Origin: an uncultured Sporobacter sp.
Lineage (GTDB): Bacteria; Bacillota; Clostridia; Oscillospirales; Oscillospiraceae
Direction: 5' to 3'
DNA length: 64,000 bases
Assembly (NCBI GenBank): GCA_963675425.1
Contig: OY776214.1
Location: 2,316,978-2,380,977 of the forward strand
A model generated the notes under the pieces. The model ran no database searches. It was not told where the DNA came from and saw only the letters and a program-made list of their open reading frames with translations. A program made the position numbers and the translations under genes. How positions within the stretch are numbered: the stretch's first letter is position 1; the number at the start of each line of letters is the position of its first letter. This document shows positions 11,399 through 61,283 of this stretch, in pieces.

Positions 11399-12793
11399 GT
11401 GAAGGATTTTGACGTGGTTGTAATCGGCGGTGGTTCCGGCGGTTGTGCCGCTGCAAGCAGGTCGGCCGATCTCGGGAAAAAGGTGGCGTTAATCGAAGGC
11501 AGAGGGAAAGAAGGCCTCGGCGGAACATGTATTAATAGGGGCTGTATACCGGCTAAAATACTTTTGGCATCCGCTGAAACGTATTCCGGGGTGCAGAAAG
11601 CCAAAGATTTTGGAATTGGGGTAACAGGCATCTCCTTTGACTATGAAAAAATCGAGCAGAAAAAACAGGCGTCAATCAAAACCTTGCGGTTCGGCTTGCA
11701 GAATTACATTCTTAAACCCAGAGGAATTGAAATTATCACCGGTTTTGGTAAGATAATTGACTCTCATACGGTAGAGGTGCATGACAACGGGCAGACAGAA
11801 CGGGTTCGGGGTGAAAATATAATTATTGCTTCCGGTTCCGAGCCGGCTATGATTCCATCTTTTCATATTGATGGCCATAACGTCATTACCAGTGACGAAG
11901 CTTTAGAGGTTCGGGAGATCCCCCCGAAGATTACAATTATCGGAGCGGGCGCCCTGGGACTTGAGTTTGCGCATTTGTTTTCAACGTTTGGCAGCAAGGT
12001 GACAGTTGTGGAAATGGCGCCTCAGGTCGTGCCGGCTTTGAAGGATAAGGAATTCACCGGTATGGTTCAAAAATACTTGGAGAAGCAGGGAATTACCGTC
12101 AAGACCGGAGTCAAAATCGACGGCGTAGAAGTCGTTGATGCAGGAAAGGTCGTTTCCAGTTTAAGCAACGGTGAGAAAATCGAAAGCAGTAAAGTGCTGG
12201 TCGCCATCGGCCGCAAACTGAATACCGAAAATATGGGGATTTCGGAATCAGGAATAAAAATGGAAAAGGGCTGTATTCTTGTTGATGATGAAATGAGAAC
12301 GAATATCCCTAATGTATTAGCGGTAGGAGATATCGTCCACGGCCCCCAGCTTTCCCATAAAGCGCAACGGGAAGGAATCGTAGCTGCCGAAGTGATTGCA
12401 GGACTGAGTACGAAAATGGATTATGAGGTTATTCCCTGGGCTATTTTTACACAGCCTGAAATTGCAGCGGTAGGGCTGACCAGGGACGAAGCGGAAGAAC
12501 AGGGAATTAAAACTATTGTCGGCTCCATGCCTTTGATGGCGAATGAAAAGGCCAATGTCATGAAAAAAACAACCGGACAGGTTAAAATTGTAGCTCGCGT
12601 AGATAACAAACAGGTAATTGGCGCTCAGATTTTTGCAGCTGAAGCTTCCATTTTAATTGGCGAATTGGCCGTGGCAGTAAAAAACAAAATTTCCATTGAA
12701 GGCTTATCCAACACGGTTCATGTTCATCCGTCCTTGTCCGAAGCGATTATGGAAGCGAGTAAGAGCAGCTTAGGCAAAGCCTTTCACAAATAA
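11399..12793 (+). CDS. lpdA: Dihydrolipoyl dehydrogenase-like flavoprotein disulfide reductase
   Basis: GGGSGG, redox disulfide GGTCINRGCIPAK, GAGALGLE, HVHPSLSE; GTG start. Confidence 0.92.
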   Translation: MKDFDVVVIGGGSGGCAAASRSADLGKKVALIEGRGKEGLGGTCINRGCIPAKILLASAETYSGVQKAKDFGIGVTGISFDYEKIEQKKQASIKTLRFGLQNYILKPRGIEIITGFGKIIDSHTVEVHDNGQTERVRGENIIIASGSEPAMIPSFHIDGHNVITSDEALEVREIPPKITIIGAGALGLEFAHLFSTFGSKVTVVEMAPQVVPALKDKEFTGMVQKYLEKQGITVKTGVKIDGVEVVDAGKVVSSLSNGEKIESSKVLVAIGRKLNTENMGISESGIKMEKGCILVDDEMRTNIPNVLAVGDIVHGPQLSHKAQREGIVAAEVIAGLSTKMDYEVIPWAIFTQPEIAAVGLTRDEAEEQGIKTIVGSMPLMANEKANVMKKTTGQVKIVARVDNKQVIGAQIFAAEASILIGELAVAVKNKISIEGLSNTVHVHPSLSEAIMEASKSSLGKAFHK

Positions 12794-12834
12794 ATTTCAA
12801 CGAAATTATTTACCCCAAAAAGGAGGCTAAAAGA

Positions 12835-13989
12835 ATGGAAAAAACTTTACGAGAATTGGATGAAGCAGCGAAAAAACGCCCCATTCAGCTGAAAGAGGCA
12901 AAGAAACAAGGCAAAAAGGTTATTCAATACACGGGTAATTTTATACCACCGGAAATGATTTATGCGGCAGGAGCGGAGCCGTATCTTATGTGCAGGGGCG
13001 GAGAACCTGAACCGCCGGACGCTGTCCTGGAGTATATGCTGCGTTTTATGAATCCGCTGGCCAGGTCCATGGCCGGTTATCACATGCTGGGCCTTGATCC
13101 TGTAACGCCGATATCTGATCTGATCGTGACCCAGCAGACCGATTGTCATGTAGGCAGGGTGACAGAACTGTTGGAATTTTTAAAACTGCCCATTCATAAA
13201 GTAGGTGTTCCCTCCGACTGGAAAAAAGGATTTACAGCTGAGTATTACTATAAGTCTTTAGATAAATTAAAAAAAAGACTGGAGGATATAACCGGCAATA
13301 GTATCACGAACGACAATCTGAAGAAATATATCGGTTATACCAACCGGATTAATCGAGTATTAAGAAAAATCGACGACCTGCGTAAAAAAGATAATCCGCC
13401 GCTCGGGGAAAACGAATTCATTCACCTCAATCATTATTCTTTGCTGTGCGAGCCTGAATTTGCAGCTGACAAACTGGAAGAACTATATGAAAAGATAAAA
13501 GACGCTCCCGGCAAGTTCCCGGAAAAAGCTCCCAGATTGCTTTTCGCGGGGCATGCCCTGGCAATCGGAGATTACATTGTCCCTAAACTGATCGAGGACT
13601 ATGGCTCCGTGATTGTTACAGAAATGCTTGATGAAGGAATCCGGCCTTTCAAGTTTGATATAGAAACCGAAGGGGATATGCTTCGTAATTTTGGGGAAAC
13701 CATGTTTTTGAAAAAGACACCTATTAATGTGTTCCAGCCTTCCTGGGAAGACAGGTTTGCCTACATGAAGCAGCTCATCAGTGACTATAAGGTAGACGGC
13801 GTAATTTGGTATCAATTATGTTTCGACGAAATTTACGACATGGAGTGTACCTGCCTGGCTAAATGGCTCGGTGAATTGAACATACCGCTTTTAAAACTGG
13901 AATCCTCTTATGAATACTCCAGGGAGGCAATGGGCCCGCTAAAAACAAGAGTTGAGAGTTTTCTCGAATCTATAAAAGGGAGGAAATAG
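12835..13989 (+). CDS. 2-hydroxyacyl-CoA dehydratase-family subunit (beta/HgdB/BcrC-like)
   Basis: IQYTGNFIPPEMIYAAG, LEDITGNSITNDNLKK, DYKVDGVIWYQLCFDE, LKTRVESFLE. Confidence 0.88.
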   Translation: MEKTLRELDEAAKKRPIQLKEAKKQGKKVIQYTGNFIPPEMIYAAGAEPYLMCRGGEPEPPDAVLEYMLRFMNPLARSMAGYHMLGLDPVTPISDLIVTQQTDCHVGRVTELLEFLKLPIHKVGVPSDWKKGFTAEYYYKSLDKLKKRLEDITGNSITNDNLKKYIGYTNRINRVLRKIDDLRKKDNPPLGENEFIHLNHYSLLCEPEFAADKLEELYEKIKDAPGKFPEKAPRLLFAGHALAIGDYIVPKLIEDYGSVIVTEMLDEGIRPFKFDIETEGDMLRNFGETMFLKKTPINVFQPSWEDRFAYMKQLISDYKVDGVIWYQLCFDEIYDMECTCLAKWLGELNIPLLKLESSYEYSREAMGPLKTRVESFLESIKGRK

Positions 13990-46690: not shown

Positions 46691-47749
46691 TCATAACGGC
46701 TTATTGTCCGGCAAAATAACGGGACTTGGGCAGCTTTCTCTATAAGTAAGAATGCATTCGTGTTTTTTTACGTTGCCCTTTCCAATGGCGCCTCTCATCG
46801 ATTGGTCTATCATCTGGATACAGTCATAACCCATATCGCTGGTGGGTGGGCAGATGCTAGTAATTGTCGGAGTTATAATCTCGCATGCAGTGTTGTTGCC
46901 ATAGGAAATTATGAATATATCGCCTGGTATCGAGCAACCATGATCTGTACAGCACTTAACGAAACCGGCCAGCATTGAATCTCCGGATACAAATACGCCG
47001 AAGGGCTCTTTGGCACTTTTTATGATCCTTTGCGCGGCGGCGTACCCGCCGTTGAAGTTATTCTCTTCATAAATAGTGTATATGTTTTCATACGGAAGCC
47101 CTGCTTTCACGCACGTATCATAAAATCCGGCATACCTAATACCTGGGTTTTTATGCATGATAAGAGGATTGATACAAGCCATTGAGACCGGAGAATTATT
47201 AAGCAGGCATTTTGCGGCTCTTTGACCAACAGAGTAATTGTCGATATATACCGCATTATAGTTGCCGGTGTCATTATTGAAAAGGACGATGGGCATCTCG
47301 GTATTTACCGACTTAAGAAAATCTTCATCTTCTTCGGAAAGACCTGTAACGACAATCCCCTGATAGATCCCAAGAGAAATTATTTGACTCATTGAAGACA
47401 GCGTGCCGGTCTCGTAAGGATGGATGGCGAACTCAAAGCCGGGTACACATTCGTTTTTATATCGCATTAATCCTTCAAAAAATTCTTTTAGCGGGCCATG
47501 GTCGAAGAAAGCTTCCCAGAATATACATACAATTGGATTCTCGACAGCATTACCCATGGCGAGCTTCTTTGCGTAGACATTAGTCCTGTATTTTAGTTCT
47601 TTAGCCACAGAGAGAACTTTCGCCTGTGTATTTTTTGATATTCTGTACTTGTTTCCATTATTGTTGAGGATGATGGAGACGGTGCTGGGCGATACGCCAG
47701 CTGCTACGGCTACATCTTTTATTGTGATGACTTTATTTTTTTTTGCCAT
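46691..47749 (-). CDS. LacI-family transcriptional regulator
   Basis: TIKDVAVAAGVSPSTVSIILN HTH, IDNYSVG, GYGNN-like ISYGNN, PTITSI. Confidence 0.95.
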   Translation of the reverse strand: MAKKNKVITIKDVAVAAGVSPSTVSIILNNNGNKYRISKNTQAKVLSVAKELKYRTNVYAKKLAMGNAVENPIVCIFWEAFFDHGPLKEFFEGLMRYKNECVPGFEFAIHPYETGTLSSMSQIISLGIYQGIVVTGLSEEDEDFLKSVNTEMPIVLFNNDTGNYNAVYIDNYSVGQRAAKCLLNNSPVSMACINPLIMHKNPGIRYAGFYDTCVKAGLPYENIYTIYEENNFNGGYAAAQRIIKSAKEPFGVFVSGDSMLAGFVKCCTDHGCSIPGDIFIISYGNNTACEIITPTITSICPPTSDMGYDCIQMIDQSMRGAIGKGNVKKHECILTYRESCPSPVILPDNKPL

Positions 47750-48111: not shown

Positions 48112-49044
48112 ATGGGTAAATTCATTTTAAGGCGGTTGCTCTGGATAATCCCAGTCATAATCGCAGTATCAATCTTTGTCTTCACAATCATGTATTTCAC
48201 GCCGGGTGATCCAGCGATGATCATTCTTGGCCCAAATGCATCCGAGGAGATGTACGAAGCACAACGAGCTGAGTTGGGTATTGACGAGCCATACATAGTG
48301 CAGCTTGGGGTTTTTTTGAAAGATGTGTTTTTAAAGGGAGACCTGGGAAATTCCTTTAAAACGGATCAAGAAGTCTCCAAACAAGTAATAATGCGCCTTC
48401 CGTACACACTTAAGCTGGCTCTGGGCAGTGTGCTGTTGTCTGTATTGATAGGAATACCAATGGGTGTCTATGCAGCAACCCATCAGGCAAGCTGGAAGGA
48501 CAACCTCTCAATGTTTGGGGCACTCTTCTGCCTTTCTATGCCGGACTTTTGGTTTGCCCTACTGCTGGTAATGTTGTTTTCACTTAAGCTCGGATGGCTG
48601 CCGTCAATCGGAGCGGACGGCTTTATATACTATATATTGCCCTGTTTTGCACTGGCTCTCGGTGGTGCCGCTTCAATAGCCAGGCAAACACGATCAAGTA
48701 TGTTGGAGGTTATCCGCCAGGATTATATTGTAACGGCCAGATCAAAAGGACAGAAGGAACGCGTAGTTATTTATCGTCATGCCCTCAAAAATGCGCTCAT
48801 CCCTATTATAACAGTCGCCGGCATGCAGACCGCCAAAATGTTTGGAGGCGCGATCGTAGCGGAAGTAATTTTCTCGATACCTGGCGTTGGTTCCTATATG
48901 CTGACAGCTATCAATAACCGTGACTATCCGGCGGTACGTGGGGGCGTTCTCATCATTGCCGTATGCTTTTGCTTAATCATGTTGATTGTCGATATCATAT
49001 ATGCCGTCGTAGATCCCAGAATCCGCGAGCAATACGAATCATGA
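48112..49044 (+). CDS. Peptide/nickel-type ABC permease (DppB-like)
   Basis: TPGDPA, GDLGNSF, TARSKG..HALKNA, IPGVG. Confidence 0.95.
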   Translation: MGKFILRRLLWIIPVIIAVSIFVFTIMYFTPGDPAMIILGPNASEEMYEAQRAELGIDEPYIVQLGVFLKDVFLKGDLGNSFKTDQEVSKQVIMRLPYTLKLALGSVLLSVLIGIPMGVYAATHQASWKDNLSMFGALFCLSMPDFWFALLLVMLFSLKLGWLPSIGADGFIYYILPCFALALGGAASIARQTRSSMLEVIRQDYIVTARSKGQKERVVIYRHALKNALIPIITVAGMQTAKMFGGAIVAEVIFSIPGVGSYMLTAINNRDYPAVRGGVLIIAVCFCLIMLIVDIIYAVVDPRIREQYES

Positions 49045-49057
49045 AGAAGGTGCGCTA

Positions 49058-49948
49058 ATGGACAACATAATGAACGAATCCGCGAAGGCCTCAAAATCCC
49101 CCAAAAACAAATCCCGCTCTGCCACGGTATTCCGCCAATTGAAAAAGAACAAGCTTGCTATGGCGGGTATGGTTATCATAATCTGCCTTATAATCCTCGC
49201 TGTCATTGCCCCCTTTATCACGCCTTACGAATATGATTATCAGGATCTTAACGCCGTCCTGGTTTCGCATTCTAAGGACCACCTTCTTGGAACCGATAGT
49301 CTCGGAAGGGATATCCTCAGCAGGCTTATATACGGCGCGCGCGTTTCACTCTCGATGGGCTTGATGATCGTTGTCATCGGTGCGGTTATCGGAATAATTC
49401 TGGGTAGTATATCTGGATTTTATGGTGGGAGGACCGACAACTACATTATGCGTTTTCTTGACATATACCAGTCGATACCCAGCGTCCTGCTTGCCATAGC
49501 GCTGGCCACCGCAATGGGTCCGGGTATTAAGAGTGCGGTCATCGCACTGGGAGTAGCGTCCTTTCCTAAATATGCAAGACTAATAAGAGCCGCCATACTA
49601 CAAGTCAGAGGGCTGGAGTATGTCGAAGCCTCGCGTGTTATCGGCGCAAGCGATTTCCGAATTCTGCTGACGCATATTATTCCCAATGCGTTTTCCCCAA
49701 TGATCGTCTTTATTACGATGTATGTCGGAACAAGCATACTGGTTGCAGCATCGCTCAGCTTCATAGGCCTTGGCGCTGAGGCGCCGCTGCCGGAATGGGG
49801 CGCAATGCTTTCCGGCGGCAGATCTCTGATGCGCGATTATCCAACGCTGGTCCTCTACCCGGGGATCATGATAATGATAACTGTGCTGGCGTTTAACGTG
49901 TTCGGAGATGGGCTCAGAGATGCGCTGGATCCGAGACTGAATGACTAA
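49058..49948 (+). CDS. Peptide/nickel-type ABC permease (DppC-like)
   Basis: LGTDSLGRDILSRL, EYVEASRVIGA, LSFIGLG, PEWGAML. Confidence 0.95.
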   Translation: MDNIMNESAKASKSPKNKSRSATVFRQLKKNKLAMAGMVIIICLIILAVIAPFITPYEYDYQDLNAVLVSHSKDHLLGTDSLGRDILSRLIYGARVSLSMGLMIVVIGAVIGIILGSISGFYGGRTDNYIMRFLDIYQSIPSVLLAIALATAMGPGIKSAVIALGVASFPKYARLIRAAILQVRGLEYVEASRVIGASDFRILLTHIIPNAFSPMIVFITMYVGTSILVAASLSFIGLGAEAPLPEWGAMLSGGRSLMRDYPTLVLYPGIMIMITVLAFNVFGDGLRDALDPRLND

Positions 49949-49959
49949 GGAGAAGAATC

Positions 49960-50982
49960 ATGGCTGAAAAAAAGGGGAAGACCATCGATGCAGAGCGGCT
50001 TGTCGAACATGCTGAGACATTACTGACGGTTAATGATCTGGTCGTCAAATACATAACCAGTCTCAATACAATAAATGCCGTAAACAGCGTTAGCTTTTCC
50101 ATTAACAAAGGGGAAACGCTTGGTTTGGTTGGCGAAACTGGCGCAGGAAAAACCACAATAGCAAAGGCAATTATGCGCATACTCCCGGAACCGCCATCAA
50201 AAATCTGTGGTGGAGAGATAAGACTTAACGGTGAAGAGATTCTTACAGCTAAACCGATTCGTATTAGGGCCATTCGAGGCGATAAGATTTCCATGATATT
50301 TCAGGATCCGATGACATCGCTAAACCCAATTGAGAAGGTTGGTAATCAGATTGCTGAATCTATCAAACTCCATTCCAGTTTTTTGAAAAAGGAAGTCGTA
50401 GAGCGTGGAATGCAGATGCTTGAGAAGGTCGGGATTCCCCGTGAGCGTTATTACGATTATCCAAACCAATTTTCCGGTGGTATGAAGCAGCGTGTTGTAA
50501 TAGCTATGGCACTGGCCTGCAACCCGGAGCTTCTGATTGCGGACGAACCGACAACGGCTCTTGATGTCACGATTCAGGCCCAGGTGCTAGAGATGATGAA
50601 CAACCTTAAAACCGAGCTGGGAACGTCTATGATTTTGATAACCCATGATCTGGGGATAGTGGCCGAGACATGTGATAATGTAGCCATTGTTTACGCGGGT
50701 GAAATAGTTGAATACGGAACAGCAGAGGAAATCTTCGACCATACAGCACATCCATATACAATCGGACTATTCAATTCAATTCCTGGAGCCAATAAAAAAG
50801 CGCGGCGCCTGAACCCTATTAAAGGTCTTATGCCTGATCCCTCAAACCTGCCATCTGGATGCAAATTCCACGAAAGGTGTCCATATGCCACAAAGCGCTG
50901 TTCTCATGATATTCCTGATTACAGATACCGTTCAGACACACATTACACGAGATGTTTTGTTGAAGGAGACATGAAACGGTGA
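49960..50982 (+). CDS. ABC ATP-binding protein (DppD-like)
   Basis: [17 protein letters not shown]-terminal CKFHERCP...C. Confidence 0.95.
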
Positions 50983-51935
50983 ATTCAATGATTGAAGTCA
51001 AGAACCTGAAAAAATACTTTAAAACGTCACATGGAATGCTGCATGCCGTCGATGATGTGAGCTTTACAATAAAACCCGGTAGGACATTCGGACTTGTCGG
51101 CGAGTCCGGATGCGGTAAATCCACTCTGGGGAGGCTCCTGGTCCACCTCACGGAGAGTACCGGCGGGCAAATAATGTTCAACGGCAGGGATATTACCCAT
51201 CTGAAAAAGACGGAGTTAAAGGAATACAGAAGTCACGCGCAGATTATTTTCCAGGATCCATACGCATCCCTAGATCCGCGGAAGACGGTCAGGCAAACAA
51301 TTGCCGAGCCGCTCGTCATAAGACGAGAGCTTTCCAGACAGGAAATATATGATAAAGGCAACGAGCTTATGGAATTGGTCGGGCTTGCAGAACGTTTTGC
51401 TGAGGCCTATCCCCACGAGCTCGACGGCGGTCGCAGGCAGCGTATCGGCATAGCAAGGGCGCTGGCCCTTGAACCACAGTTTATTGTCTGTGATGAGCCT
51501 GTCTCTGCTCTGGACGTATCCATTCAGGCCCAGATAATCAATCTGCTGCAGGATCTACAGGAACAACTGGGGCTGGCCTATATATTCATAACCCACGATC
51601 TTTCGGTTGTTGAACATATTTCCGATGAAATTGCGGTTATGTATCTCGGACAGATTGTTGAGAAGTCCTCCACCGAGGCGCTTTTTGAAAACCCACTGCA
51701 CCCGTACACTAAAATTCTGCTATCGGCCATACCGGTACCCGATGTCCACTTTACTCAAAAACGCATCATTGCAAAAGGCGAGATAACCTCACCCATCAAC
51801 CCTGCCCCCGGCTGCCGATTTGCTGCCAGGTGCCATTATGCAACTGAGGAATGTAAAAAGCCGCAGGCGCTGGAGGAAATTAGAAGTGATCATTTTGTTT
51901 CTTGCTGCAGAGTAAAAGAAATAAATGGTTTATGA
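50979..51935 (+). CDS. ABC ATP-binding protein (DppF-like)
   Basis: GESGCGKST, LDGGRRQR, CRFAARC. Confidence 0.95.
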   Translation: MNSMIEVKNLKKYFKTSHGMLHAVDDVSFTIKPGRTFGLVGESGCGKSTLGRLLVHLTESTGGQIMFNGRDITHLKKTELKEYRSHAQIIFQDPYASLDPRKTVRQTIAEPLVIRRELSRQEIYDKGNELMELVGLAERFAEAYPHELDGGRRQRIGIARALALEPQFIVCDEPVSALDVSIQAQIINLLQDLQEQLGLAYIFITHDLSVVEHISDEIAVMYLGQIVEKSSTEALFENPLHPYTKILLSAIPVPDVHFTQKRIIAKGEITSPINPAPGCRFAARCHYATEECKKPQALEEIRSDHFVSCCRVKEINGL

Positions 51936-51959
51936 AAATAATATGAAAGGAAGAAAGAA

Positions 51960-53564
51960 ATGAAGAAATGTATTGTTGTCCTGCTTTGCTTGGTTTTAAT
52001 GTTCTCCTTTGTAGCTTGCACTTCTACTCCAAACAGCAATTCCCAAGAGACCGTATCTTCAGGAGACGCGTCGTCGGGTGACACGTCGTCAGATAACGGA
52101 GCTTCTCAGCCCGCTGAAGCGATAGATTCTATAGTTGTAGCCTATCCCACAGACCCTGGAAACCTGAGCCCCTTCGGAACCAGTAATTCCTTTACAGACT
52201 TTATTGTATACAATATATACGAACCCCTGTTTAAACTCGAGGATGCCACCGGTGAGATCGTCCCGGTCATTATGGAAAGCTATGACTTGAGCGATGATGG
52301 TTTAATCTACACCTTCCACCTCAATAAAGGTGTTAAGGACATCAACGGAAACGAGATCACAGCCCAGGATTGTCTTTTCAGTTTCCTTCTTTGCAAAGAC
52401 AGCCCGATGGGAAGCAATACGAATATGATCGACTTTGACAAAACGGAAGTCGTTGACGACTATACCTTCAAACTGGTTACAACGAGCACCGGGAAAATAT
52501 ATATGTCACAAATCGCCAAGATCTATATTATCAGTGAGAAATCATATACCGAGAGCCCCGATCAGTTTGTCACAACACCCGTCGGAACAGGCCCCTACAA
52601 GCTGGATGAGTGGGTGCAGGGATCTTCTGTCAAGCTTGTCGCAAACGATAACTACTGGAATGACAATAAACCCACAGTTCAAAATTTAGAGTTTAAAATT
52701 ATAGGTGAGCCGTCCCAGCGTACAAACACGCTTATGACCGGCGAGTGTAACTTCGTATATGATTATCTCATCAGCGACGCCGATTACATAAACGGCACAG
52801 ACGGTTTGAAAACCGAGGACCGCAACACAAATACCGTATATGCCATTTTCTTCAATTGTGCTGAAGGCAAAGCCGGTTACGATATCAACTTCAGAAAAGC
52901 TGTCTGTCTCGCCCTTAATAACGAAGGCCTGACAAACATGATTTATCAAGGACACAATACGCCGGCAACTACCTGTGAATCCAACTCCTGCTCGGATTAT
53001 ACTCAGGAATGGGAAGGCTGCGAGTTCTATAAATATGACGTCGAGGCCGCCAAGGAGTACCTTGCGCAGTCAAACTATGACGGCTCACCACTTGTGCTTG
53101 TTACCAAAAGCAATGTAAATAACTTTCAGATGCTGTGCGAAGCCGTACAAAATCAGCTTAAGCAAATTGGCGTAACTGTAGAAATCCAGCAGTATGAAGC
53201 GGCGACGCTGAGGACTATTATCATAGAGCAGCCTGAAGATTGGGATATGCAGATATCGGATCACAGCACATTCTCAAACTACGGTGTAGACTCCATTCAT
53301 AACATGCATGTAAGACGTAACTATCCCCACATTGAGGGTGAATTATTTGATTTATTCACTGAGTACTGCGAAAAGGCTATCTCCAGCACCAACGAACAGG
53401 AGTGTTTGGAGTATGCTGCAAAAGCGGTCCAGCTCAATCAGGACAACTGTACTATTCGCGGGATTTGCTATGCAACTATGAAAATTGCCTATGCAGATTA
53501 CATCTCCAATATTAACACCTATACCACCAACAAAATTGACTGGCGTGAGGTAACCATCGGGTAA
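51960..53564 (+). CDS. Family-5 ABC substrate-binding lipoprotein
   Basis: Lipobox FVAC, IYEPLF, DGLIYTFHL, PVGTGPYK. Confidence 0.92.
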   Translation: MKKCIVVLLCLVLMFSFVACTSTPNSNSQETVSSGDASSGDTSSDNGASQPAEAIDSIVVAYPTDPGNLSPFGTSNSFTDFIVYNIYEPLFKLEDATGEIVPVIMESYDLSDDGLIYTFHLNKGVKDINGNEITAQDCLFSFLLCKDSPMGSNTNMIDFDKTEVVDDYTFKLVTTSTGKIYMSQIAKIYIISEKSYTESPDQFVTTPVGTGPYKLDEWVQGSSVKLVANDNYWNDNKPTVQNLEFKIIGEPSQRTNTLMTGECNFVYDYLISDADYINGTDGLKTEDRNTNTVYAIFFNCAEGKAGYDINFRKAVCLALNNEGLTNMIYQGHNTPATTCESNSCSDYTQEWEGCEFYKYDVEAAKEYLAQSNYDGSPLVLVTKSNVNNFQMLCEAVQNQLKQIGVTVEIQQYEAATLRTIIIEQPEDWDMQISDHSTFSNYGVDSIHNMHVRRNYPHIEGELFDLFTEYCEKAISSTNEQECLEYAAKAVQLNQDNCTIRGICYATMKIAYADYISNINTYTTNKIDWREVTIG

Positions 53565-53596
53565 GCGCGTTGCAATAAAACCGAGGCGTCTATGGA

Positions 53597-53626
53597 GAGG
53601 GGCTGCCTAAAAACAGCCCCTTTTGT
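53597..53626 (+). terminator. Hairpin or terminator after the SBP gene
   Basis: aggggctg-cctaaaaa-cagcccct-tttgtt. Confidence 0.55.
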
Positions 53627-53655
53627 TATTAAGCTATCATTTAGGAGAAATAGCA

Positions 53656-56010
53656 ATGAATAATGATGAAATGTTAGAAACTACGCCTGTTACAGCGAGT
53701 GCCACAACAAAGGGCTTTGGTGGGGATGTGACCGTTACCCTGACAGTACTTGAGGACAGGATCACAGATTGCCTGATTCGCGGAGACGATGAAACCCCGG
53801 ATACCGGCGGCCGTGCAATAAGGACAATGCAGACAAGGGTTATTGAGGCCGGAATTGCAAAAGTGGACGGGGTCAGCGGTGCGACCTCTACCTCCAGAGC
53901 GGTTTTAAGAGCCGCTGCTAAAGCCTATAATGAAGCGACTGGCCGCGAAGCGGGAGAAGTGAAAATGATGCCCGGCGAATACACAGCCGCTGAAACGGGG
54001 TACTGGGGTATATGGAAGCTGCCTGTAACTATTACGGTAAATGAAAAGGCTTTGCTGAAAATTGAAGTGCCAAGTGACCGCTTTGCCCACGGAGAAACAG
54101 AGGTGATTTTGCAAAGCGTTAAGGATAAGCTGTTTCCACGCATAATCGAAACCCAATCTCTCAATGTGGATGCAATAGCAGGCGCGACAGTATCAAGTAA
54201 TGCCGCCAAGCAGGCTATTGAGTCCGCGCTTAAAGAAGCGCTTGCAGAAGGGGAGTCGGAGGAATCCGCGATTGAGCATTTTTATAAACCGCTGTATAAG
54301 ACTGAAACAGATATGATAGAGGAGATTGATACAGATCTTCTCGTTGTTGGGATGAGTACAGGCGGTATTCTGGGACTGTACAGCGCGATGGAGACGATGA
54401 AGAGCCTCAACGGGAATAAGCGCGTCAGTATCCTTGCTATCGATAAGGCTGGAAAGTATGGAGGGAGGTCTGCGCTTGTTCATGAAATGGCCGCTGTCAA
54501 TCCTCGGGAATACCAGAACGCCGTTAATAATGGCGAGGATTTTGTTGATTCGGCAAGATTTTTGAAGGAATGGCTTGATTATACGACAAACAATGGCGTT
54601 CAAAGCGCTAAGGAAGAGTTGATTAGACTGTTCTTCGAGGAATCCGGGAAGACAATCGATCTGATGTACAAGCTGGGCTGGTTGTTCGGTACTGCTAAAA
54701 AATCTGACATGACCGACGGTTACACGGCTTTCAACACCGCGCTGACTTCCAATGTGGATATCGGCACATATGAAGACCGCCGCAATATTCTCGACACTTA
54801 TTATAAATATCTTTTAGCCGCTGTGGTGGCGCAGGGTGGCAATTATATGCTTGAAACCGAGGGTTATGATTTTGTAATGGACGAAGACCGGGTTAAAGGC
54901 GTGAAAGCCCGGAATATCGTTACCGGCAAAGAATATTTAATTAACGCCAAAGCCGTGATTATGTCAACAGGCGGTTTCGGTGGTAATGACAAGATGTTAA
55001 CTGAACTTATTGATCCCCGCTGGGCAGGCCCACGGAAAAAGCTCGGAACAGGAATGGACGATGGCAAGATGTTTAAGGCGGCTCTTGAATCCGGCGCTGG
55101 AACATGGAATATAAATATGTCGCCGCTTGTCATGCATTTTAGCCTGCCACATACATTAACGCGTTTTCCAATCATGCTTCAGGAAGGTACTTTGAACGGG
55201 AGAACCGGGCGCAGTACATCTTGGACGCTTAACGACTTGCCTCTCGGTTTAGGTATCTCAGCCGACACGATATACGTCAACAAAGACGGCACGCGCTTTT
55301 GCGACGAGTCGCGTGTAGGACAATTCGCGACTGACCCCACTATGGATTCATGGCTCGGTTCATTGGCTGGACAGTATTACTATGCCATTTATTCAAAAGA
55401 CCAGCTGGATGTCATAGCGAAAGAAGGCCTGAATAATGTATCACGTTGGGAAGGTTATTGCAGTCAGGGCGGCGTCCCAAAAGACCTCCCCATTCCGGTG
55501 GTATATGAGTGCCTTGATGTCTGTGTGGAAGAAGGGATGGCGTGGAAAGGCGACACTCTTCATGAGCTGGAAAAGCAGATGGAGATGGAACGGGACTCAT
55601 TGGTCAAAGCAGTAAACACCTATAATAACTTCTGCGCTACCGGCAATGATGAGCAATTTGGTAAGGCTTCAAAGTATCTGGCTGGCGTAGGTTCAGGCCC
55701 TTATTATGCTATCAAGATCATGTGTGTCATCTTTGCTACTTCCGGCGGTTTGGATGTCGATACTCAGATTCGCGTTCTAAAGTCGGATCACAAAACCCCA
55801 ATTTGCGGTCTTTACGCGATTGGAAATGATTCTCTCGGCGTGCTTCTCAATGGGGATCGTAATTACATTGGTTTCGGCGGTATTGCCCAGGGGTGGCTTG
55901 CTACATCAGGCCGCCTGGCAGGCATGAACGCAACAAAGTATATCAATGAAGCGTATGGACTTGCGGACGTCAGTCCAGCACTTGTGAACCTCGATTCAAT
56001 GATATCATAA
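53656..56010 (+). CDS. Flavoenzyme with two N-terminal FMN-binding domains and an FAD-binding (flavocytochrome c/SdhA-like) domain
   Basis: VDGVSGATSTS and VDAIAGATVSS flavinylation-type motifs; KAVIMSTGGFG, GPYYAI, TSGGLDVD, GLYAIGND; no signal peptide; start Met12 (AGGAG RBS). Confidence 0.88.
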   Translation: MNNDEMLETTPVTASATTKGFGGDVTVTLTVLEDRITDCLIRGDDETPDTGGRAIRTMQTRVIEAGIAKVDGVSGATSTSRAVLRAAAKAYNEATGREAGEVKMMPGEYTAAETGYWGIWKLPVTITVNEKALLKIEVPSDRFAHGETEVILQSVKDKLFPRIIETQSLNVDAIAGATVSSNAAKQAIESALKEALAEGESEESAIEHFYKPLYKTETDMIEEIDTDLLVVGMSTGGILGLYSAMETMKSLNGNKRVSILAIDKAGKYGGRSALVHEMAAVNPREYQNAVNNGEDFVDSARFLKEWLDYTTNNGVQSAKEELIRLFFEESGKTIDLMYKLGWLFGTAKKSDMTDGYTAFNTALTSNVDIGTYEDRRNILDTYYKYLLAAVVAQGGNYMLETEGYDFVMDEDRVKGVKARNIVTGKEYLINAKAVIMSTGGFGGNDKMLTELIDPRWAGPRKKLGTGMDDGKMFKAALESGAGTWNINMSPLVMHFSLPHTLTRFPIMLQEGTLNGRTGRSTSWTLNDLPLGLGISADTIYVNKDGTRFCDESRVGQFATDPTMDSWLGSLAGQYYYAIYSKDQLDVIAKEGLNNVSRWEGYCSQGGVPKDLPIPVVYECLDVCVEEGMAWKGDTLHELEKQMEMERDSLVKAVNTYNNFCATGNDEQFGKASKYLAGVGSGPYYAIKIMCVIFATSGGLDVDTQIRVLKSDHKTPICGLYAIGNDSLGVLLNGDRNYIGFGGIAQGWLATSGRLAGMNATKYINEAYGLADVSPALVNLDSMIS

Positions 56011-56051
56011 GATGCATTTTGAAATAATTATGGACACATGGAGAACAAAAT

Positions 56052-56984
56052 GTGGATATACATACCGTAAAATGCTCATTTTTCAACACCGAGAACACCA
56101 TCACCGCCGCTTGTGATCCGCCGCTGTTGGAACGGGTGATAGCAATGTGTAATTTCTATGACCGTCTGCTCAGCAAGACCGCTCCGGGAAGCGACGTGTG
56201 GAGACTCAACCAGGCGCACGATGTCCCGGTTGAGGTGAGCGAGCACACTATCAAAATCCTGAAGCTGGCGATGGAGATGTATGAGGTTTCCGGAGGGCGG
56301 TTTAATATCGCGATAGGTTCCGTTATGGCGCTTTGGAACTTTAATGGCGGGAACGAAGACCTCCCGCCTTCAGCGGCATTGGATGAAGCGCTGGGTATTA
56401 TGGACTGTAAAAAGATTAGGCTATCAGGACGTTTTGTTCGTGTTCCGGACGGAATGCAAATCGACTTAGGCGGTATTGCCAAAGGGTACATTGCCGATAG
56501 AATCGCAGAGGAGTTGCGCAAAAACGGTGTAGAGAGCGCCCTCGTTAACCTCGGCGGGAATATTATTACAATAGGTAAAAAGCCGGATGGAACGCCGTGG
56601 AGAGTCGGCTTACAGGTTCCGTTTACTGAACGGAGTTATCGGGACAGCTTCTGGTCGGCTGTAGATTGTACCGACGCATCCATTGTGACAAGCGGCTCTT
56701 ATGAGCGTGGATTTTCCAAAGGCAATCGCTGGTATCACCATATAATCAATCCAGAAACAGGGATGCCGGTTGATAATGACGTCCTGTCGGTCACAGTCTG
56801 CGCGACGTCGAGTTTTCTGGCAGATGCTCTGTCCACACCATTATTTATGCTCGGTAAGCGTGAGGGAATGGATTTGGCTGAACGCTATGGTGTTGACGTC
56901 GCGTATTATCTTCGGGATAACCGCGTGATTGTCAGCAGCGGCATGGAAAAGAGGTTGCGTGTTCAGGTAAACATTGAGAAATGA
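56052..56984 (+). CDS. apbE: FAD:protein FMN transferase
   Basis: IDLGGIAKGY, VTSGSYER, YHHIINPETG, ADALST; no signal peptide or lipobox. Confidence 0.93.
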   Translation: MDIHTVKCSFFNTENTITAACDPPLLERVIAMCNFYDRLLSKTAPGSDVWRLNQAHDVPVEVSEHTIKILKLAMEMYEVSGGRFNIAIGSVMALWNFNGGNEDLPPSAALDEALGIMDCKKIRLSGRFVRVPDGMQIDLGGIAKGYIADRIAEELRKNGVESALVNLGGNIITIGKKPDGTPWRVGLQVPFTERSYRDSFWSAVDCTDASIVTSGSYERGFSKGNRWYHHIINPETGMPVDNDVLSVTVCATSSFLADALSTPLFMLGKREGMDLAERYGVDVAYYLRDNRVIVSSGMEKRLRVQVNIEK

Positions 56985-56991
56985 AAGGAAT

Positions 56992-58686
56992 ATGAAGCTC
57001 ATGTATCAAATCAAGGAGTCATGCTCCGGGTGTCATTATTGTGAATTGGCGTGCCCTATGAGGGCTGTCTACTATAACGGCTCGAAATACGAGATCGACC
57101 GTGAGCAGTGCGTGGAATGCGGGCTCTGCGAGACGCTGTGCCCCACGTGTTCTATCTGCGATGAGCACGACAGGTTGAGTCCGGCGTCTCATGAAAGGAT
57201 TACCCGCAAATGCGATTTGGTCGTATGTGGCGGCGGGAGCGGTTTGGTCGCGGCTGTCAAAGCGGCCCAGCTTGGAAAGAAAGTTATTCTGCTGGAAAAG
57301 GCAAAGCGAATTGGCGGAAACATGTGCCTTGCCCACTCCTTTTTCCCGGTCTACAGCAGACTTCATGCCGAGCTTGGCTTAAATGATGTCAGGGAGGAGG
57401 CGGTCTCGGAGTTATCGGACCGCACAGGCGGCGTAATCGGCAGTGATATGATGCGTACAGCGGTGTATGGCTGCTCGGAGTTTACTGACTGGTTCTTGGA
57501 GTTTCCAGGTACGCGCAATCGGTTTTCACTTGAGCTGTCCGAACACGCGGTGGCTCGTCCTGTTTTCGGACCGGCTGTCCTGCGATTTCCCAAACGGATC
57601 GAAAACAAGCTAAGCAAGGATCCCTCCATAGGTCCGGGCTTTATGGGAAGCTTTGTGAAAAAGATCATGCTGGAGGCAATACCCAGCCAAAAGCTGGACG
57701 TTGAGATATTGCCCCGGCATGAAGCCAGACATCTGATAACCAACGGCGCCGGGAGAGTCACCGGCGTGATCGCCGGGGATCCCGGAGGTGAGACGGAAAT
57801 CCACTGCAAAGCCGTGATACTGGCGACCGGCGGTTATGGCGCAAGCGACGAAAAGCTGCAGAGGTATTTTAGATTCTTTGATACACAGTGGCCTATGCAA
57901 CGATTTACGGTTCCCAGCAATACCGGCGACGCAATCGATATGCTTCAGGAGTTGGGCGTAGAGCCTGACACTGAGCGTATGCATGTATCAACGTCCGGGC
58001 CGGCGCACCGCCCGTTCAGCTATAGCCTGTGCCGCGTATTGGAGCATCCCGCCGCATTGCTTGTTGACCTCAGCGGTAAGCGCTGGATCGATGAAAGTAC
58101 CTGCTTAACGGACGGGGCGGCAAGAATAAAGAGCAGCCTGGAAAAGGTCACATGGGGTATTTATACGCAAAAGAACATAGATGATATCATGCAAGGCTAT
58201 CTGGGTAATCCGTCACTAGCGGACGACTACGAATGCCTCGCATATTATCAGGAGGATCTGGATCGGGAGGCGGGCTACAGGAAGCCGCCCGTTTATAAGG
58301 CAGATACCATTGAAGAGCTCGCTGAAAAGCTTGATATTGACCCCGACGTACTGAAAAAGACGGCAGAGGACTATAACCGTTTCTGCAGAAACGGAATCGA
58401 TGAGGAGTTTAACAAAAACGCCGAATATCTGGCCCCAAGGGAGCAAGGGCCATACTATGCGATTTACGGGCAGTTGTTTTCGGAATGTGCCGCGGGCGGC
58501 TTAACGGTGGACGCGAAATGCCGCGTTCTGCATAACGACAACACCCCGATCTCCGGGCTTTACGCGGGCGGCGACGCTACGTCGGCGATGCAACGCCGCG
58601 GTGAGCCGGCAGTAGTTTCCGAACTGACATGGGCGCTGGCTTCAGCTTACCACTGTGCGGTTCAATCTGTAAAAGAAATGGAGTGA
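56992..58686 (+). CDS. 2x[4Fe-4S] ferredoxin fused to FAD-binding (SdhA/flavocytochrome c-like) oxidoreductase
   Basis: CSGCHYCELACP and CVECGLCETLCP; VVCGGGSG, LATGGY, TGDAI, GPYYAI, GLYAGGD. Confidence 0.88.
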   Translation: MKLMYQIKESCSGCHYCELACPMRAVYYNGSKYEIDREQCVECGLCETLCPTCSICDEHDRLSPASHERITRKCDLVVCGGGSGLVAAVKAAQLGKKVILLEKAKRIGGNMCLAHSFFPVYSRLHAELGLNDVREEAVSELSDRTGGVIGSDMMRTAVYGCSEFTDWFLEFPGTRNRFSLELSEHAVARPVFGPAVLRFPKRIENKLSKDPSIGPGFMGSFVKKIMLEAIPSQKLDVEILPRHEARHLITNGAGRVTGVIAGDPGGETEIHCKAVILATGGYGASDEKLQRYFRFFDTQWPMQRFTVPSNTGDAIDMLQELGVEPDTERMHVSTSGPAHRPFSYSLCRVLEHPAALLVDLSGKRWIDESTCLTDGAARIKSSLEKVTWGIYTQKNIDDIMQGYLGNPSLADDYECLAYYQEDLDREAGYRKPPVYKADTIEELAEKLDIDPDVLKKTAEDYNRFCRNGIDEEFNKNAEYLAPREQGPYYAIYGQLFSECAAGGLTVDAKCRVLHNDNTPISGLYAGGDATSAMQRRGEPAVVSELTWALASAYHCAVQSVKEME

Positions 58687-58691
58687 TCGAT

Positions 58692-60047
58692 ATGAGCACC
58701 CGTAGGCCCGATATGTCGCCCCACAAAACCCCGATGGCTGAGCAGCCTGTGGAGACGAGAATCAGTAATTTAAGCGAGGTGGGATTGGGTTATACCGATG
58801 AGCAGGCCATGGCCGAAGCCGAACGCTGTATGAACTGTCCCGAACGCTATTGTGCGGAAAACTGTCCGGCTCATACCGCCATACCGGTATTTATTGAAAA
58901 AATACGAGCGGGAGATTTTGAAAAGGCATATGAAATCATTGCCTCCACAAACCCGTGCGCCGCGATTTCCAGCCGGTTGTGCCCGTATGAGCGCCAATGT
59001 GAAAGCGCGTGTACACGCGGGATAAAACATGAGCCTGTAGCTATTGGACGTCTTGAGCGGTTTGTCTGCGACAAGCATCGCATGAAAGGTGCCGAAATAC
59101 TATATTCTGGGCCCCAAAAAAGAGGCAGCGCGGCTGTGGTGGGTTCAGGCCCCGCTGGATTATGCTGCGCGCGCGCCTTGGTAAAAGCAGGTGTATCAGT
59201 CACCGTTTTTGAAAAATCGGATCGCGTAGGTGGCGCTCTGTCATGGGGTATCCCGGCATTTGTGGTTCCAAAGATTCTGCTTGGGGATCTGGTCGGTGAG
59301 CTCGTTACGTATGGTGTGACGTTCAAAACCGGGATGGAGCTAGGCAGGGACATAACGCTTTGTGATTTACACAGCAAGTATGACGCGGTCTTTCTCGCCT
59401 GCGGGGCCGGTAAGCCGACCGACTTCCCCGCCATGGACGGCCAGCCAGGAGTAATGCAAGCCGCGGATTATCTGGTGGCGCCTGTGAAACCCTCCGCTGC
59501 GCGGGTTGCTGTATTCGGGGACGGTGGCACGGCAATCGATACAGCGCGGACTGCTTTAAGAGCGGGTGCGGATGAGGTTTCTTTGGTAATTTGGCGCACC
59601 GAAAAAGAAATACCCACCACTCAGGTTGAATTGGAATTAGCCCGAACAGAGGGCATAAAGGTAATTACTCTTTTAAGCCCCGCCAAATTTATTGCTGAAT
59701 CAGGAAAACTGACAGGGGTTGAGTGTCATATAATGACATTTATCGAACCCGATTATCCGGGCGGGTTTGGAAATGTCGCTCCTTCCGGACGGCGGACGGT
59801 TATAGACGCCGACCTTGCGATAATTGCTTTCGGGTTTGTAAACAAGCCTATTGAAGGAGTGAAGACGGATTCGCGAAACCGTATAATTGTGGATGAGAAA
59901 TACATGACTTCGACAAGCCGTATTTTCGCAGGGGGCGAGGCTGTGACCGGCCCTTCAACATTTATGAAATCGGCAGCCGCAGGCATGGCCGCCGCCGAAG
60001 CGATGCTACAGGTCTGCTTCGCTGACCAAATGAGGGATACAGAATAG
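58692..60047 (+). CDS. GltD/PreT/SudA-like NAD(P)H:Fe-S flavoprotein oxidoreductase
   Basis: EAERCMNC...CAENCP, RLCPYERQCESAC, GSGPAGL, GDGGTAIDTAR, FAGGEAVTGP; start at Met22. Confidence 0.88.
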   Translation: MSTRRPDMSPHKTPMAEQPVETRISNLSEVGLGYTDEQAMAEAERCMNCPERYCAENCPAHTAIPVFIEKIRAGDFEKAYEIIASTNPCAAISSRLCPYERQCESACTRGIKHEPVAIGRLERFVCDKHRMKGAEILYSGPQKRGSAAVVGSGPAGLCCARALVKAGVSVTVFEKSDRVGGALSWGIPAFVVPKILLGDLVGELVTYGVTFKTGMELGRDITLCDLHSKYDAVFLACGAGKPTDFPAMDGQPGVMQAADYLVAPVKPSAARVAVFGDGGTAIDTARTALRAGADEVSLVIWRTEKEIPTTQVELELARTEGIKVITLLSPAKFIAESGKLTGVECHIMTFIEPDYPGGFGNVAPSGRRTVIDADLAIIAFGFVNKPIEGVKTDSRNRIIVDEKYMTSTSRIFAGGEAVTGPSTFMKSAAAGMAAAEAMLQVCFADQMRDTE

Positions 60048-60272: not shown

Positions 60273-61283
60273 ATGGCAAATTCACCAAAAGAAAACCTGA
60301 TTATGGCGCTTCGGCACCAAACACCGGAATATATTCCCAACTTTCGGCTTGAGGCGATGTCTTATATTCCCTCGTGCATACATGAGCGCGCACCCGGCGA
60401 TGGATCGCCGCAGCAGCGCCAGGGGGGAACCGGGAAAGACTGGTTCGGGGTCGAATGGCTTTTTGAACCTACAGTCGGCGGTTCAATGGTCAACCCTCGT
60501 ATCCCGCCGATGCTTTATGATGTGAACGAATGGAAAGAGGTTGTTAAGTTCCCTAATTTGGACGCTATCGACTGGCAAGCAGCCCGGGAGCGGGATGAAG
60601 AACTGATCGACCGGGATAAGCTGCTTGTTATCACCATTTTAAACGGTCCCTTCGAGCGTATGCACTCGCTTATGGGTATGATAGATGCCAACTGCGCATT
60701 GGTCACCGACCCGGAGGTTTCCGCAGAATTATTAATGGCCATCGCTGAATATAAGATGAAGCTCATCGATAAAATCGTCGAGTATTATCCCGTGGATATG
60801 ATTGAGGTTCATGACGATTGGGGTCACCAGAAAAGCACCTTTATGTCGCCTGATACATGGGATGCACTCATAGCCCCGGCCATGAAAAAAATTGTGGCTC
60901 ACGTCAAGAGCAAGGGGAAGCTGTTTATGCTCCACTCCTGCGGAAAAATTGAGTCCCTGATTCCACGGATAATCGAAATCGGTATCGACCATTGGTCGTC
61001 CTGCCAGACCTGTAACGATATTGACGGGATTATCGCCAGGTATGGAGACAAAATAACGCTCCTTGGCGGGATGGATACACCCGAGCTTTCAAACTCCTCG
61101 AAGTCAAGGTCGGAGCTAAAAGAACTGGCCGCAAAACGCATTGACAAGATATGTAGAGGCTGCGGGCTTCTTGTATACGGTTCAATGAATAATCCGACGC
61201 TGATCGATGTCATTACTGAAGTAATTGAGGAAAGGAAACATTTCTTCAGTAAGCCTGAAAATCGGGAGCTGCCAAGGCTGTAA
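60273..61283 (+). CDS. Uroporphyrinogen decarboxylase-family protein (MtaA/CmuA-like methyltransferase fold)
   Basis: GKDWFGVEW, NGPFERMHSLMG, HDDWGHQ, FMSP, LHSCG. Confidence 0.82.
   Translation: MANSPKENLIMALRHQTPEYIPNFRLEAMSYIPSCIHERAPGDGSPQQRQGGTGKDWFGVEWLFEPTVGGSMVNPRIPPMLYDVNEWKEVVKFPNLDAIDWQAARERDEELIDRDKLLVITILNGPFERMHSLMGMIDANCALVTDPEVSAELLMAIAEYKMKLIDKIVEYYPVDMIEVHDDWGHQKSTFMSPDTWDALIAPAMKKIVAHVKSKGKLFMLHSCGKIESLIPRIIEIGIDHWSSCQTCNDIDGIIARYGDKITLLGGMDTPELSNSSKSRSELKELAAKRIDKICRGCGLLVYGSMNNPTLIDVITEVIEERKHFFSKPENRELPRL

Follow-up and report, generated by a model that had tools for sequence, protein, structure and literature searches.

A predicted cytosolic flavinylated reductase system in an uncultured Sporobacter, apparently descended from Tat-exported flavin reductases

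Results

The window analysed here, a stretch of 64,000 nucleotides from contig OY776214.1 of an uncultured Sporobacter sp. (assembly GCA_963675425.1), contains four closely packed plus-strand genes downstream of an RNA hairpin. They encode a reductase of the FMN_bind–FAD_binding_2 type that lacks a signal peptide, a likewise signal-less ApbE, which is an FAD:protein FMN transferase (FAD, flavin adenine dinucleotide; FMN, flavin mononucleotide), and two candidate electron-input proteins:

53656..56010, + strand: gene 1, signal-less reductase, 784 aa (FMN_bind twice, FAD_binding_2)
53884..53886, + strand: codon of Thr77 of gene 1, predicted FMN attachment site 1 (DGVSGAT, D71-T77; full motif match)
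54187..54189, + strand: codon of Thr178 of gene 1, predicted FMN attachment site 2 (DAIAGAT, D172-T178; 6/7 motif positions)
56052..56984, + strand: gene 2, signal-less ApbE, 310 aa (Pfam ApbE)
56992..58686, + strand: gene 3, 2x[4Fe-4S] ferredoxin domain fused to FAD_binding_2, 564 aa (Pfam, motifs)
58692..60047, + strand: gene 4, NfnB/GltD-like NAD(P)H oxidoreductase, 451 aa (Pfam Fer4_20 and Pyr_redox_2)

Gene 1 has the ribosome-binding site AGGAGA 7 nt 5' of its ATG. Pfam recognises two FMN_bind stretches (84.5 bits, cut-off 22) at residues ~12-95 and ~107-198, and a FAD_binding_2 domain (PF00890; 82.1 bits, cut-off 20.4) at residues ~221-765, and these matches, together with the motifs DGVSGAT77 and DAIAGAT178, bear out the tandem FMN-binding domains that an initial annotation had read in the 784-residue protein. 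The flavinylation motif is D-x-x-[S/T]-G-A-[S/T] (PMC12052999), and the second site deviates from it by an Ala at position −3. A homologue search yielded ~600 proteins, 108 of which are full-length members that were used for all counts and for the family tree; in these, Ala at position −3 of site 2 occurs 48 times and is as frequent as Ser/Thr. The column of Thr77 holds Thr or Ser in 107 of the 108 members and that of Thr178 in all of them, with Asp172 invariant. Gly75, Gly176, Arg547, Glu551 and Tyr737 are conserved throughout the family together with Asp172, Thr77 and Thr178, signal-less members included. The AlphaFold2 model of gene 1 reached a predicted local distance difference test score (pLDDT) of 90.4 and a predicted template modelling score (pTM) of 0.89, and the best folds retrieved with it by Foldseek were Fcc3 and UrdA (E ~1e-32 to 1e-30) and KstD, at ~20% identity.

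No signal peptide can be encoded for gene 1: we looked for one upstream, but the frame is closed by a stop 11 codons 5' of the ATG and the gap from the preceding gene measures only 91 nt, which together exclude it, as the initial annotation had assumed. The binding protein of the adjacent importer served as internal control for signal detection and showed a clear lipoprotein signal, MKKCIVVLLCLVLMFSFVAC. In genes 1-4, no 19-residue window attains the hydrophobicity of a membrane helix, and the one borderline value (1.62) lies in the Rossmann fold of gene 4.

In the FAD domain, the alignment places Arg547 (GTRFCDE) opposite Arg402, the catalytic acid in Fcc3 (GNRFMNE), and Arg547 is invariant (108/108). 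We compared gene 1 with fumarate reductases of the Fcc3/FRD type at the carboxylate-binding residues His365/Thr377, His504 and Arg544 (in HGANRLGG), and it lacks their carboxylate-binding set: Phe-Ala (VIFATSGG) occupies the position of His504, LLNGDRNYIGFGG stands where HGANRLGG would be and contains an insertion, and the match to TIGR01813 amounts to 131 bits against a cut-off of 285. Sequence comparison thus supports the view that gene 1 is not a fumarate reductase, as was initially concluded from the missing HGxNRLGG, and its motifs, read by the scheme of Bertsova et al. (10.1101/2022.01.20.477176), predict a C=C reductase without specificity for fumarate. The best NCBIfam match, 'vinyl phenol reductase' (149 bits, cut-off 600), was rejected as an assignment, and the OsrA/OsrB steroid reductases are FadH/OYE-type enzymes (OYE, old yellow enzyme) and unrelated. 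The start of the Rossmann fold had been called atypical. The segments LLVVGMSTGG and GVLLNGDRNYIGFGG do read as noted, but the features that looked atypical are ordinary variants in this family: the Ser in GxSxxG occurs in 22 of the 108 members, Tat-exported ones (Tat, twin-arginine translocation) among them, and as exported relatives share it, we rejected this Ser as a mark of lost FAD binding.

Gene 2 starts with a GTG behind a GGAGA site, matches Pfam ApbE (PF02424) with 274.6 bits (cut-off 25.6) and solved ApbE/Ftp/FmnB structures with E 6e-48, and keeps the motifs DLGGIAKG, SGxYER, YHHI and ADALST in the structure alignment. It is predicted to move FMN from FAD onto the Thr of the target motif. 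The protein begins MDIHTVKCSFFNTENT, ~10 residues ahead of the conserved F-[DN]-T-x-N-T where the catalytic domain sets in, and carries neither signal peptide nor lipobox, in line with the initial annotation; this lack of the lipoprotein or secretion signal canonical for ApbE bears on its location and not on its family membership. Three ApbE genes are present in the genome, and the two paralogues of gene 2 (L001 and L003) are lipoproteins with lipoboxes that start MKRLTAVFLLLLILSSC and MKRIISIILALLLMLVTGC. Among the best 120 homologues, the nearest ~85 clusters are signal-less like gene 2; down to ~47% identity the proteins comprise ~300-315 aa and start a few residues before F-[DN]-T-x-N-T, with one exception, and lipoprotein N-termini appear only below ~47% identity. 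By this comparison, the ApbE of gene 2 is part of a coherent signal-less clade.

The signal-less state of gene 1 appears to be derived. When signal states were assigned by an alignment anchor, 82 of the 108 family members had twin-arginine or lipoprotein signals, 21 had none, 3 had a relic and 2 were ambiguous, and the state switches at least 5 times on the family tree. The clade of the window reductase comprises the signal-less P0006 and P0010 and the relic-bearing P0007-9, and its sisters are the Tat-lipoproteins P0011 and P0012; the window reductase is 79-82% identical to P0007-9 and 73% identical to P0011/P0012. P0007-9 possess a 57-residue N-terminal extension (MSTDAKSVSHPDYHNG..VAVGAC / MSTDAKSVSHPDYHNGVKDDFADVAV----GAC) that aligns with the Tat-lipoprotein signal MNKDANSVSRRDFLKGAAVGAVGVAAMGVLGAC of P0011/12, is preceded by a strong ribosome-binding site, has lost the twin arginines and has a shorter, charged hydrophobic core. 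The ratio of non-synonymous to synonymous substitution rates (dN/dS) of this relic is 0.26-0.53, as compared to 0.08-0.17 for the remaining protein. Judged by the alignment, the extension is a decayed Tat signal, and in the window this relic has been deleted.

The genome itself, a single 4.6-Mb contig that is 97.6% complete, was searched for the Tat machinery, and neither TatC nor TatA was found. Relatives in other genomes were located by an alignment-based scan, and TatC is missing in 5/5 genomes with signal-less reductases (the genome of the window, a Papillibacter metagenome-assembled genome (MAG) with an 88%-identical gene, two Parasporobacterium MAGs and a Lachnospiraceae MAG), whereas it was found in 14/14 genomes with twin-arginine forms; a Fisher test of TatC versus signal gives ~9e-5, uncorrected for shared ancestry. 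One more TatC-less genome has a Sec-lipoprotein form of the reductase. One could still imagine that gene 1 leaves the cytosol in a way that escapes recognition, for instance by hitch-hiking on a partner or with the help of a non-classical signal, and is flavinylated outside the cytosol by a lipoprotein ApbE while gene 2 serves another role, since the family is overwhelmingly exported and two extracytosolic ApbEs exist in the genome. However, besides the lack of TatA and TatC, no operon partner has a signal or a membrane helix, gene 2 encodes a conserved ApbE that has no signal and is maintained by purifying selection, and the reductase is accompanied by an importer and by NAD(P)H/Fe-S proteins of the cytosol, and we therefore consider such an extracytosolic location very unlikely.

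The decaying signal in close relatives could also suggest an evolutionary leftover, that is, a reductase that was stranded in the cytosol after the loss of Tat and is non-functional or decaying. The substitution patterns argue against this: in comparisons of the window with the corresponding genes of the related loci L008 or L009, dN/dS is 0.10-0.22 for each of genes 1-4 at synonymous divergences (dS) of 0.4-1.2, and 0.09-0.22 for each domain of gene 1. All four genes are maintained by purifying selection. Furthermore, the frames are intact, the catalytic and flavinylation residues are all kept, and the relic is cleanly gone in the window, where a good ribosome-binding site is present. A mere leftover is hence hardly credible.

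The association of the reductase with its ApbE recurs in related genomes. A signal-less or relic reductase is followed by a signal-less ApbE in 9 of the 11 loci that cover this slot (the window, L008, L009, L013, L014, L026, L027, L041 and L056); of the other two, L012 has a URO-D-like gene filling it, and L057 (3541-7718) has nothing at this place. In L057, the relic homologue P0008 stands without ApbE before a gene 3 homologue, and the transferase is encoded elsewhere or missing. The complete set of LacI regulator, Opp importer, reductase, ApbE, gene 3 and gene 4 recurs in L008, L009 and L056. The Tat-lipoprotein sister P0011 adjoins a response regulator, and no ApbE, importer or NfnB-like gene is found at that locus.

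A second arrangement bears on the order of flavinylation and export. In L020 (9782-13120), L029 (10001-13412), L042 (815-4054) and L058 (5141-11564), a twin-arginine reductase is directly followed by a signal-less ApbE, and TatC is present in the genomes of L020, L029 and L042, which are those that were checked. This gene order suggests that these reductases may be flavinylated in the cytoplasm before Tat export, and if so, loss of the signal alone would have been enough to yield a working cytosolic enzyme.

Genes 3 and 4 most likely start at the ATG at 56992 and at 58692, respectively. The gene 3 protein has two CxxCxxCxxxC motifs (aa 11 and 40), matches Pfam Fer4 and FAD_binding_2 (145.5 bits) and retains the catalytic Arg (GKRWIDE). 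The best solved relatives of gene 4 are NfnB (4ylf_B) and NfnI-L (5jca_L) with E ~1e-81, and its eight N-terminal Cys could ligate two [4Fe-4S] clusters. No NfnA, GltB or PreA partner is present in the operon, and the conserved partner of gene 4 is gene 3, a homologue of which shares a contig with every member of the reductase subclade of the window. L012 contains a polyferredoxin and a Fer4-GltD fusion instead of gene 3, so that the partner of the reductase which remains constant is an Fe-S/NAD(P)H module rather than another catalytic flavoprotein. In L027 (8985-13253), from a Parasporobacterium MAG, an FMN_red gene and a LysR regulator precede the signal-less reductase and its ApbE, and this FMN_red, resembling NAD(P)H-dependent FMN reductases, is a third kind of candidate cytosolic donor. 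The donor module thus seems to be interchangeable, like the fused OYE domain of the Klebsiella and Vibrio enzymes.

The genes and features that flank genes 1-4 are the following:

46691..47749, − strand: LacI-family regulator (Pfam LacI and Peripla_BP_3), divergent from the importer operon
48112..53564, + strand: Opp/Dpp-type ATP-binding cassette (ABC) importer (two permeases, two ATPases, SBP_bac_5 lipoprotein; Pfam)
51960-53564, + strand: SBP_bac_5 binding protein of the importer, with the lipoprotein signal at its N-terminus
53595..53624, + strand: G+C-rich hairpin followed by a U-run, terminator- or attenuator-like (RNA fold)
60273..61283, + strand: URO-D/MtaA-like protein, 336 aa (Pfam URO-D, 62 bits)

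The importer adjoins the reductase also in L008, L009, L012, L015 and L057, and LacI orthologues occupy the equivalent position in L008, L009, L012 and L056. Together, importer and regulator imply a substrate that is imported and that acts as inducer; the nearest solved relatives of the binding protein (agrocinopine AccA and YliB) are too distant to name the ligand. The hairpin lies 3' of the binding-protein gene, and the fold of 53565-53660 has −29.4 kcal/mol (z = −2.9). Its possible roles are termination or attenuation of transcription and stabilisation of the importer mRNA. A simple terminator scan did not list it among its terminators, and a promoter scan upstream of gene 1 gave no clear promoter. 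The initial annotation had confined the system to 53656-56984, which holds genes 1 and 2 and omits both the likely electron-input module downstream (56992-60047) and the importer and regulator upstream.

Downstream of gene 4, the URO-D/MtaA-like gene is followed by a TetR regulator. Its product is 35% identical (E 3e-55) to that of the L012 gene directly 3' of the reductase (12476-13444), where such a gene fills the usual slot of the ApbE, and two divergent versions of the cluster have a gene of this kind; none was found in L008, L009 or L056. That the URO-D/MtaA-like protein belongs to the system is possible but uncertain.

Elsewhere, the genome (G000) codes for around a dozen FAD_binding_2 proteins that are full-length (480-570 aa) and lack FMN_bind domains; the genes of three of these are located 50-70 kb upstream of the window (G000 2247289-2266452). 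In addition, L004 (G000:C1 ~1722829) encodes a 522-aa lipoprotein with FMN_bind and a long C-terminal region resembling periplasmic binding proteins, which is a separate, extracytosolic flavinylation target of this genome.

Discussion

The analyses make it probable that the window encodes a cytosolic, substrate-inducible reductase system that descended from Tat-exported respiratory 'flavin reductases'. A cytosolic flavinylation system had been proposed in the initial annotation, and the proposal has gained in substance by the relic Tat signal of close relatives, the absence of the Tat machinery, the signal-less ApbE clade, and the conservation of the NAD(P)H/Fe-S partner and the importer. In the mechanism that we propose, gene 1 would fold in the cytoplasm with non-covalently bound FAD, and Thr77 and Thr178 would each receive a covalent FMN from the ApbE of gene 2. 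NAD(P)H would deliver its electrons to the gene 4 flavoprotein, whose two [4Fe-4S] clusters would hand them on to the ferredoxin domain in gene 3; from there they would hop along both covalent FMNs until they reach the gene 1 FAD, which together with Arg547 would reduce a C=C bond of an imported compound. We infer that flavinylation takes place, from which donors the electrons come, in which direction the reaction runs and to which class the substrate belongs; the substrate is probably an acid or carbonyl compound with alpha,beta-unsaturation, other than fumarate, and it would be taken up through the neighbouring Opp-type ABC transporter, with the divergent LacI regulator in control. Gene 3 retains its own catalytic Arg and may reduce a second bond or a related substrate.

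The neighbourhood of other signal-less members gives a hint as to substrates. In L013 (6013-18786), the signal-less reductase and ApbE are found beside PrpD, a CitMHS transporter, aconitase X and AtuA, and in L014 (3504-12490) beside glutamate mutase and MutL. These neighbours hint at unsaturated di- or tricarboxylates (mesaconate- or aconitate-like) as substrates in these sister clades, and not necessarily in the clade of the window.

Several observations weigh against this model. Gene 2 has Asn for Asp in HHIIDP, its sole departure from the ApbE motifs. The genomes with signal-less reductases that enter the TatC correlation represent about three lineages only. The terminator-like hairpin separates the importer from gene 1, and the co-transcription of the two is putative; it may be interrupted at this point. 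Other signal-less clades show differing or no obvious nearby donors, with none seen in L013, L014 and L041. Finally, the pair of gene 3 and gene 4 is widespread alone beside HxlR regulators, without an FMN_bind protein or ApbE: such pairs, which apparently constitute an uncharacterised family of NAD(P)H flavoenzymes, occur in L050, L051 and L052 (8001-11035 each) and in many Clostridia, with 60-65% identity. Because the pair is common alone and gene 3 keeps its catalytic Arg, these two proteins can, to judge from their distribution and sequence, function independently and may simply share the operon with gene 1.

These last observations lead to a different account of the operon, in which it would encode two independent cytosolic reductases of one catabolic pathway. 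Genes 3 and 4 would then form a self-contained NAD(P)H:substrate reductase. Gene 1, flavinylated by gene 2, would be supplied by a different donor, for which ferredoxin, flavodoxin or an NAD(P)H flavoprotein encoded elsewhere would come into question, and the two enzymes would reduce successive or related bonds in the imported compound. Besides the stand-alone pairs next to HxlR genes and the GKRWIDE motif, the FMN_red neighbour in L027 and the lack of a GltD-like gene in L013/L014 agree with this account. However, gene 3 lies directly 3' in every member of the window subclade, and gene 4 does so too where the contig reaches that far, and in L012 the GltD-like module is accompanied by a polyferredoxin lacking a catalytic flavin domain, as would suit a donor. 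In view of this strict synteny within the subclade and of the polyferredoxin variant, we favour genes 3 and 4 as electron donors of gene 1 over a function merely beside it, and regard two independent reductases as unlikely, though by no means far-fetched.

Two further ideas go beyond the proposed linear chain, and we take them together as rather improbable. First, the products of genes 1, 3 and 4 could assemble in the cytosol into a single complex whose NfnB-like flavin would bifurcate the electrons of NAD(P)H, with one electron passing downhill via the Fe-S clusters and the two covalent FMNs to a high-potential C=C acceptor, and the other reducing ferredoxin. Second, and linked to this, the signal-less ApbE clade could normally flavinylate Tat substrates in the cytoplasm before their export. 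To our knowledge, flavinylation in the cytoplasm prior to Tat export has not been described in the literature on flavinylation.

Cytosolic flavinylation by ApbE as such is already known, and the novelty claimed in the initial annotation was therefore overstated. The established cytoplasmic flavinylated reductases are FRD of Klebsiella pneumoniae (NADH:fumarate), ARD of Vibrio harveyi (NADH:acrylate) and Crd (CrdAB) of Vibrio ruber (NADH:cinnamate) (review PMC12052999; 10.1101/2022.01.20.477176; 10.1101/2023.03.04.531086), and a cytoplasmic ApbE is required for FRD of K. pneumoniae and ARD of V. harveyi (PMC12052999; 10.1101/2022.01.20.477176). The window system resembles these soluble cytoplasmic enzymes in that an FMN_bind domain is predicted to feed a FAD_binding_2 domain, that a signal-less ApbE would attach the FMN to Thr, and that a pyridine nucleotide would be the ultimate donor; a cytoplasmic location with a dedicated signal-less ApbE follows for the window from sequence and genome context. 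FRD, ARD and Crd possess one FMN_bind domain and an OYE-like NADH-oxidising domain (PF00724), fused or in a partner subunit, and they are found in Gammaproteobacteria. In contrast, gene 1 has two FMN_bind domains, Pfam detects no PF00724 match in genes 1-4, the candidate donor is an NfnB/GltD-like flavoprotein with a ferredoxin-fused FAD_binding_2 protein, and the genes, which are linked to an importer and a LacI regulator, belong to a Clostridium-class anaerobe.

With Listeria FrdA, Shewanella UrdA and the cinnamate, itaconate and urocanate reductases of Eggerthella and Holdemania, gene 1 shares the family, the FMN_bind - FAD_binding_2 order and the catalytic Arg, and its homologues of up to 73% identity are Tat-lipoproteins. 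These extracytosolic enzymes have Sec, Tat or lipoprotein signals and receive electrons from membrane electron-transport chains, whereas the window reductase has no signal, belongs to an organism without Tat and is linked to donors in the cytosol. Gene 4, in turn, has the domains and cluster cysteines of NfnB, GltD and the N-terminal module of dihydropyrimidine dehydrogenase (DPD), in which electrons run from NADPH via FAD and 2x[4Fe-4S] to a partner flavin, and the proposed sequence of NADPH, Fe-S wire, flavin and C=C reduction follows the logic of DPD. Differing from Nfn, GltD and DPD, the partner is a ferredoxin-fused FAD_binding_2 protein and, by our inference, the covalent-FMN reductase. 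What is new here is thus the occurrence in a Firmicute, the two FMN domains, the Fe-S/NfnB-like donor, the linked importer and the traceable origin from a Tat substrate.

In summary, the locus offers an unusually clear view of an exported respiratory reductase that turned cytosolic: the Tat signal first decayed and later disappeared from the gene, the organism has no Tat machinery, a cytoplasmic ApbE was already at hand, and a new NAD(P)H/Fe-S donor and an importer appear to have been recruited. The Tat-signal reductases beside signal-less ApbEs raise the question of whether some flavoproteins are flavinylated before export; if this is true, it would contradict the view of ApbE-dependent flavinylation as an extracytosolic event. 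If bifurcation is true, the system would be a new flavin-based electron-bifurcating enzyme, by which a Tat-less fermenter would conserve energy from a former respiratory acceptor. A broad census of flavinylation deliberately dropped all genes without a signal peptide (PMC8238504), and the main role of flavinylation has been argued to be the prevention of extracellular flavin loss (10.1101/2024.03.13.584918). The present locus and the ~85 signal-less ApbE clusters point to a sizeable cytosolic branch in anaerobic Firmicutes, and predictions of 'respiratory reductases' in gut microbes that rely on signal peptides will miss such enzymes.

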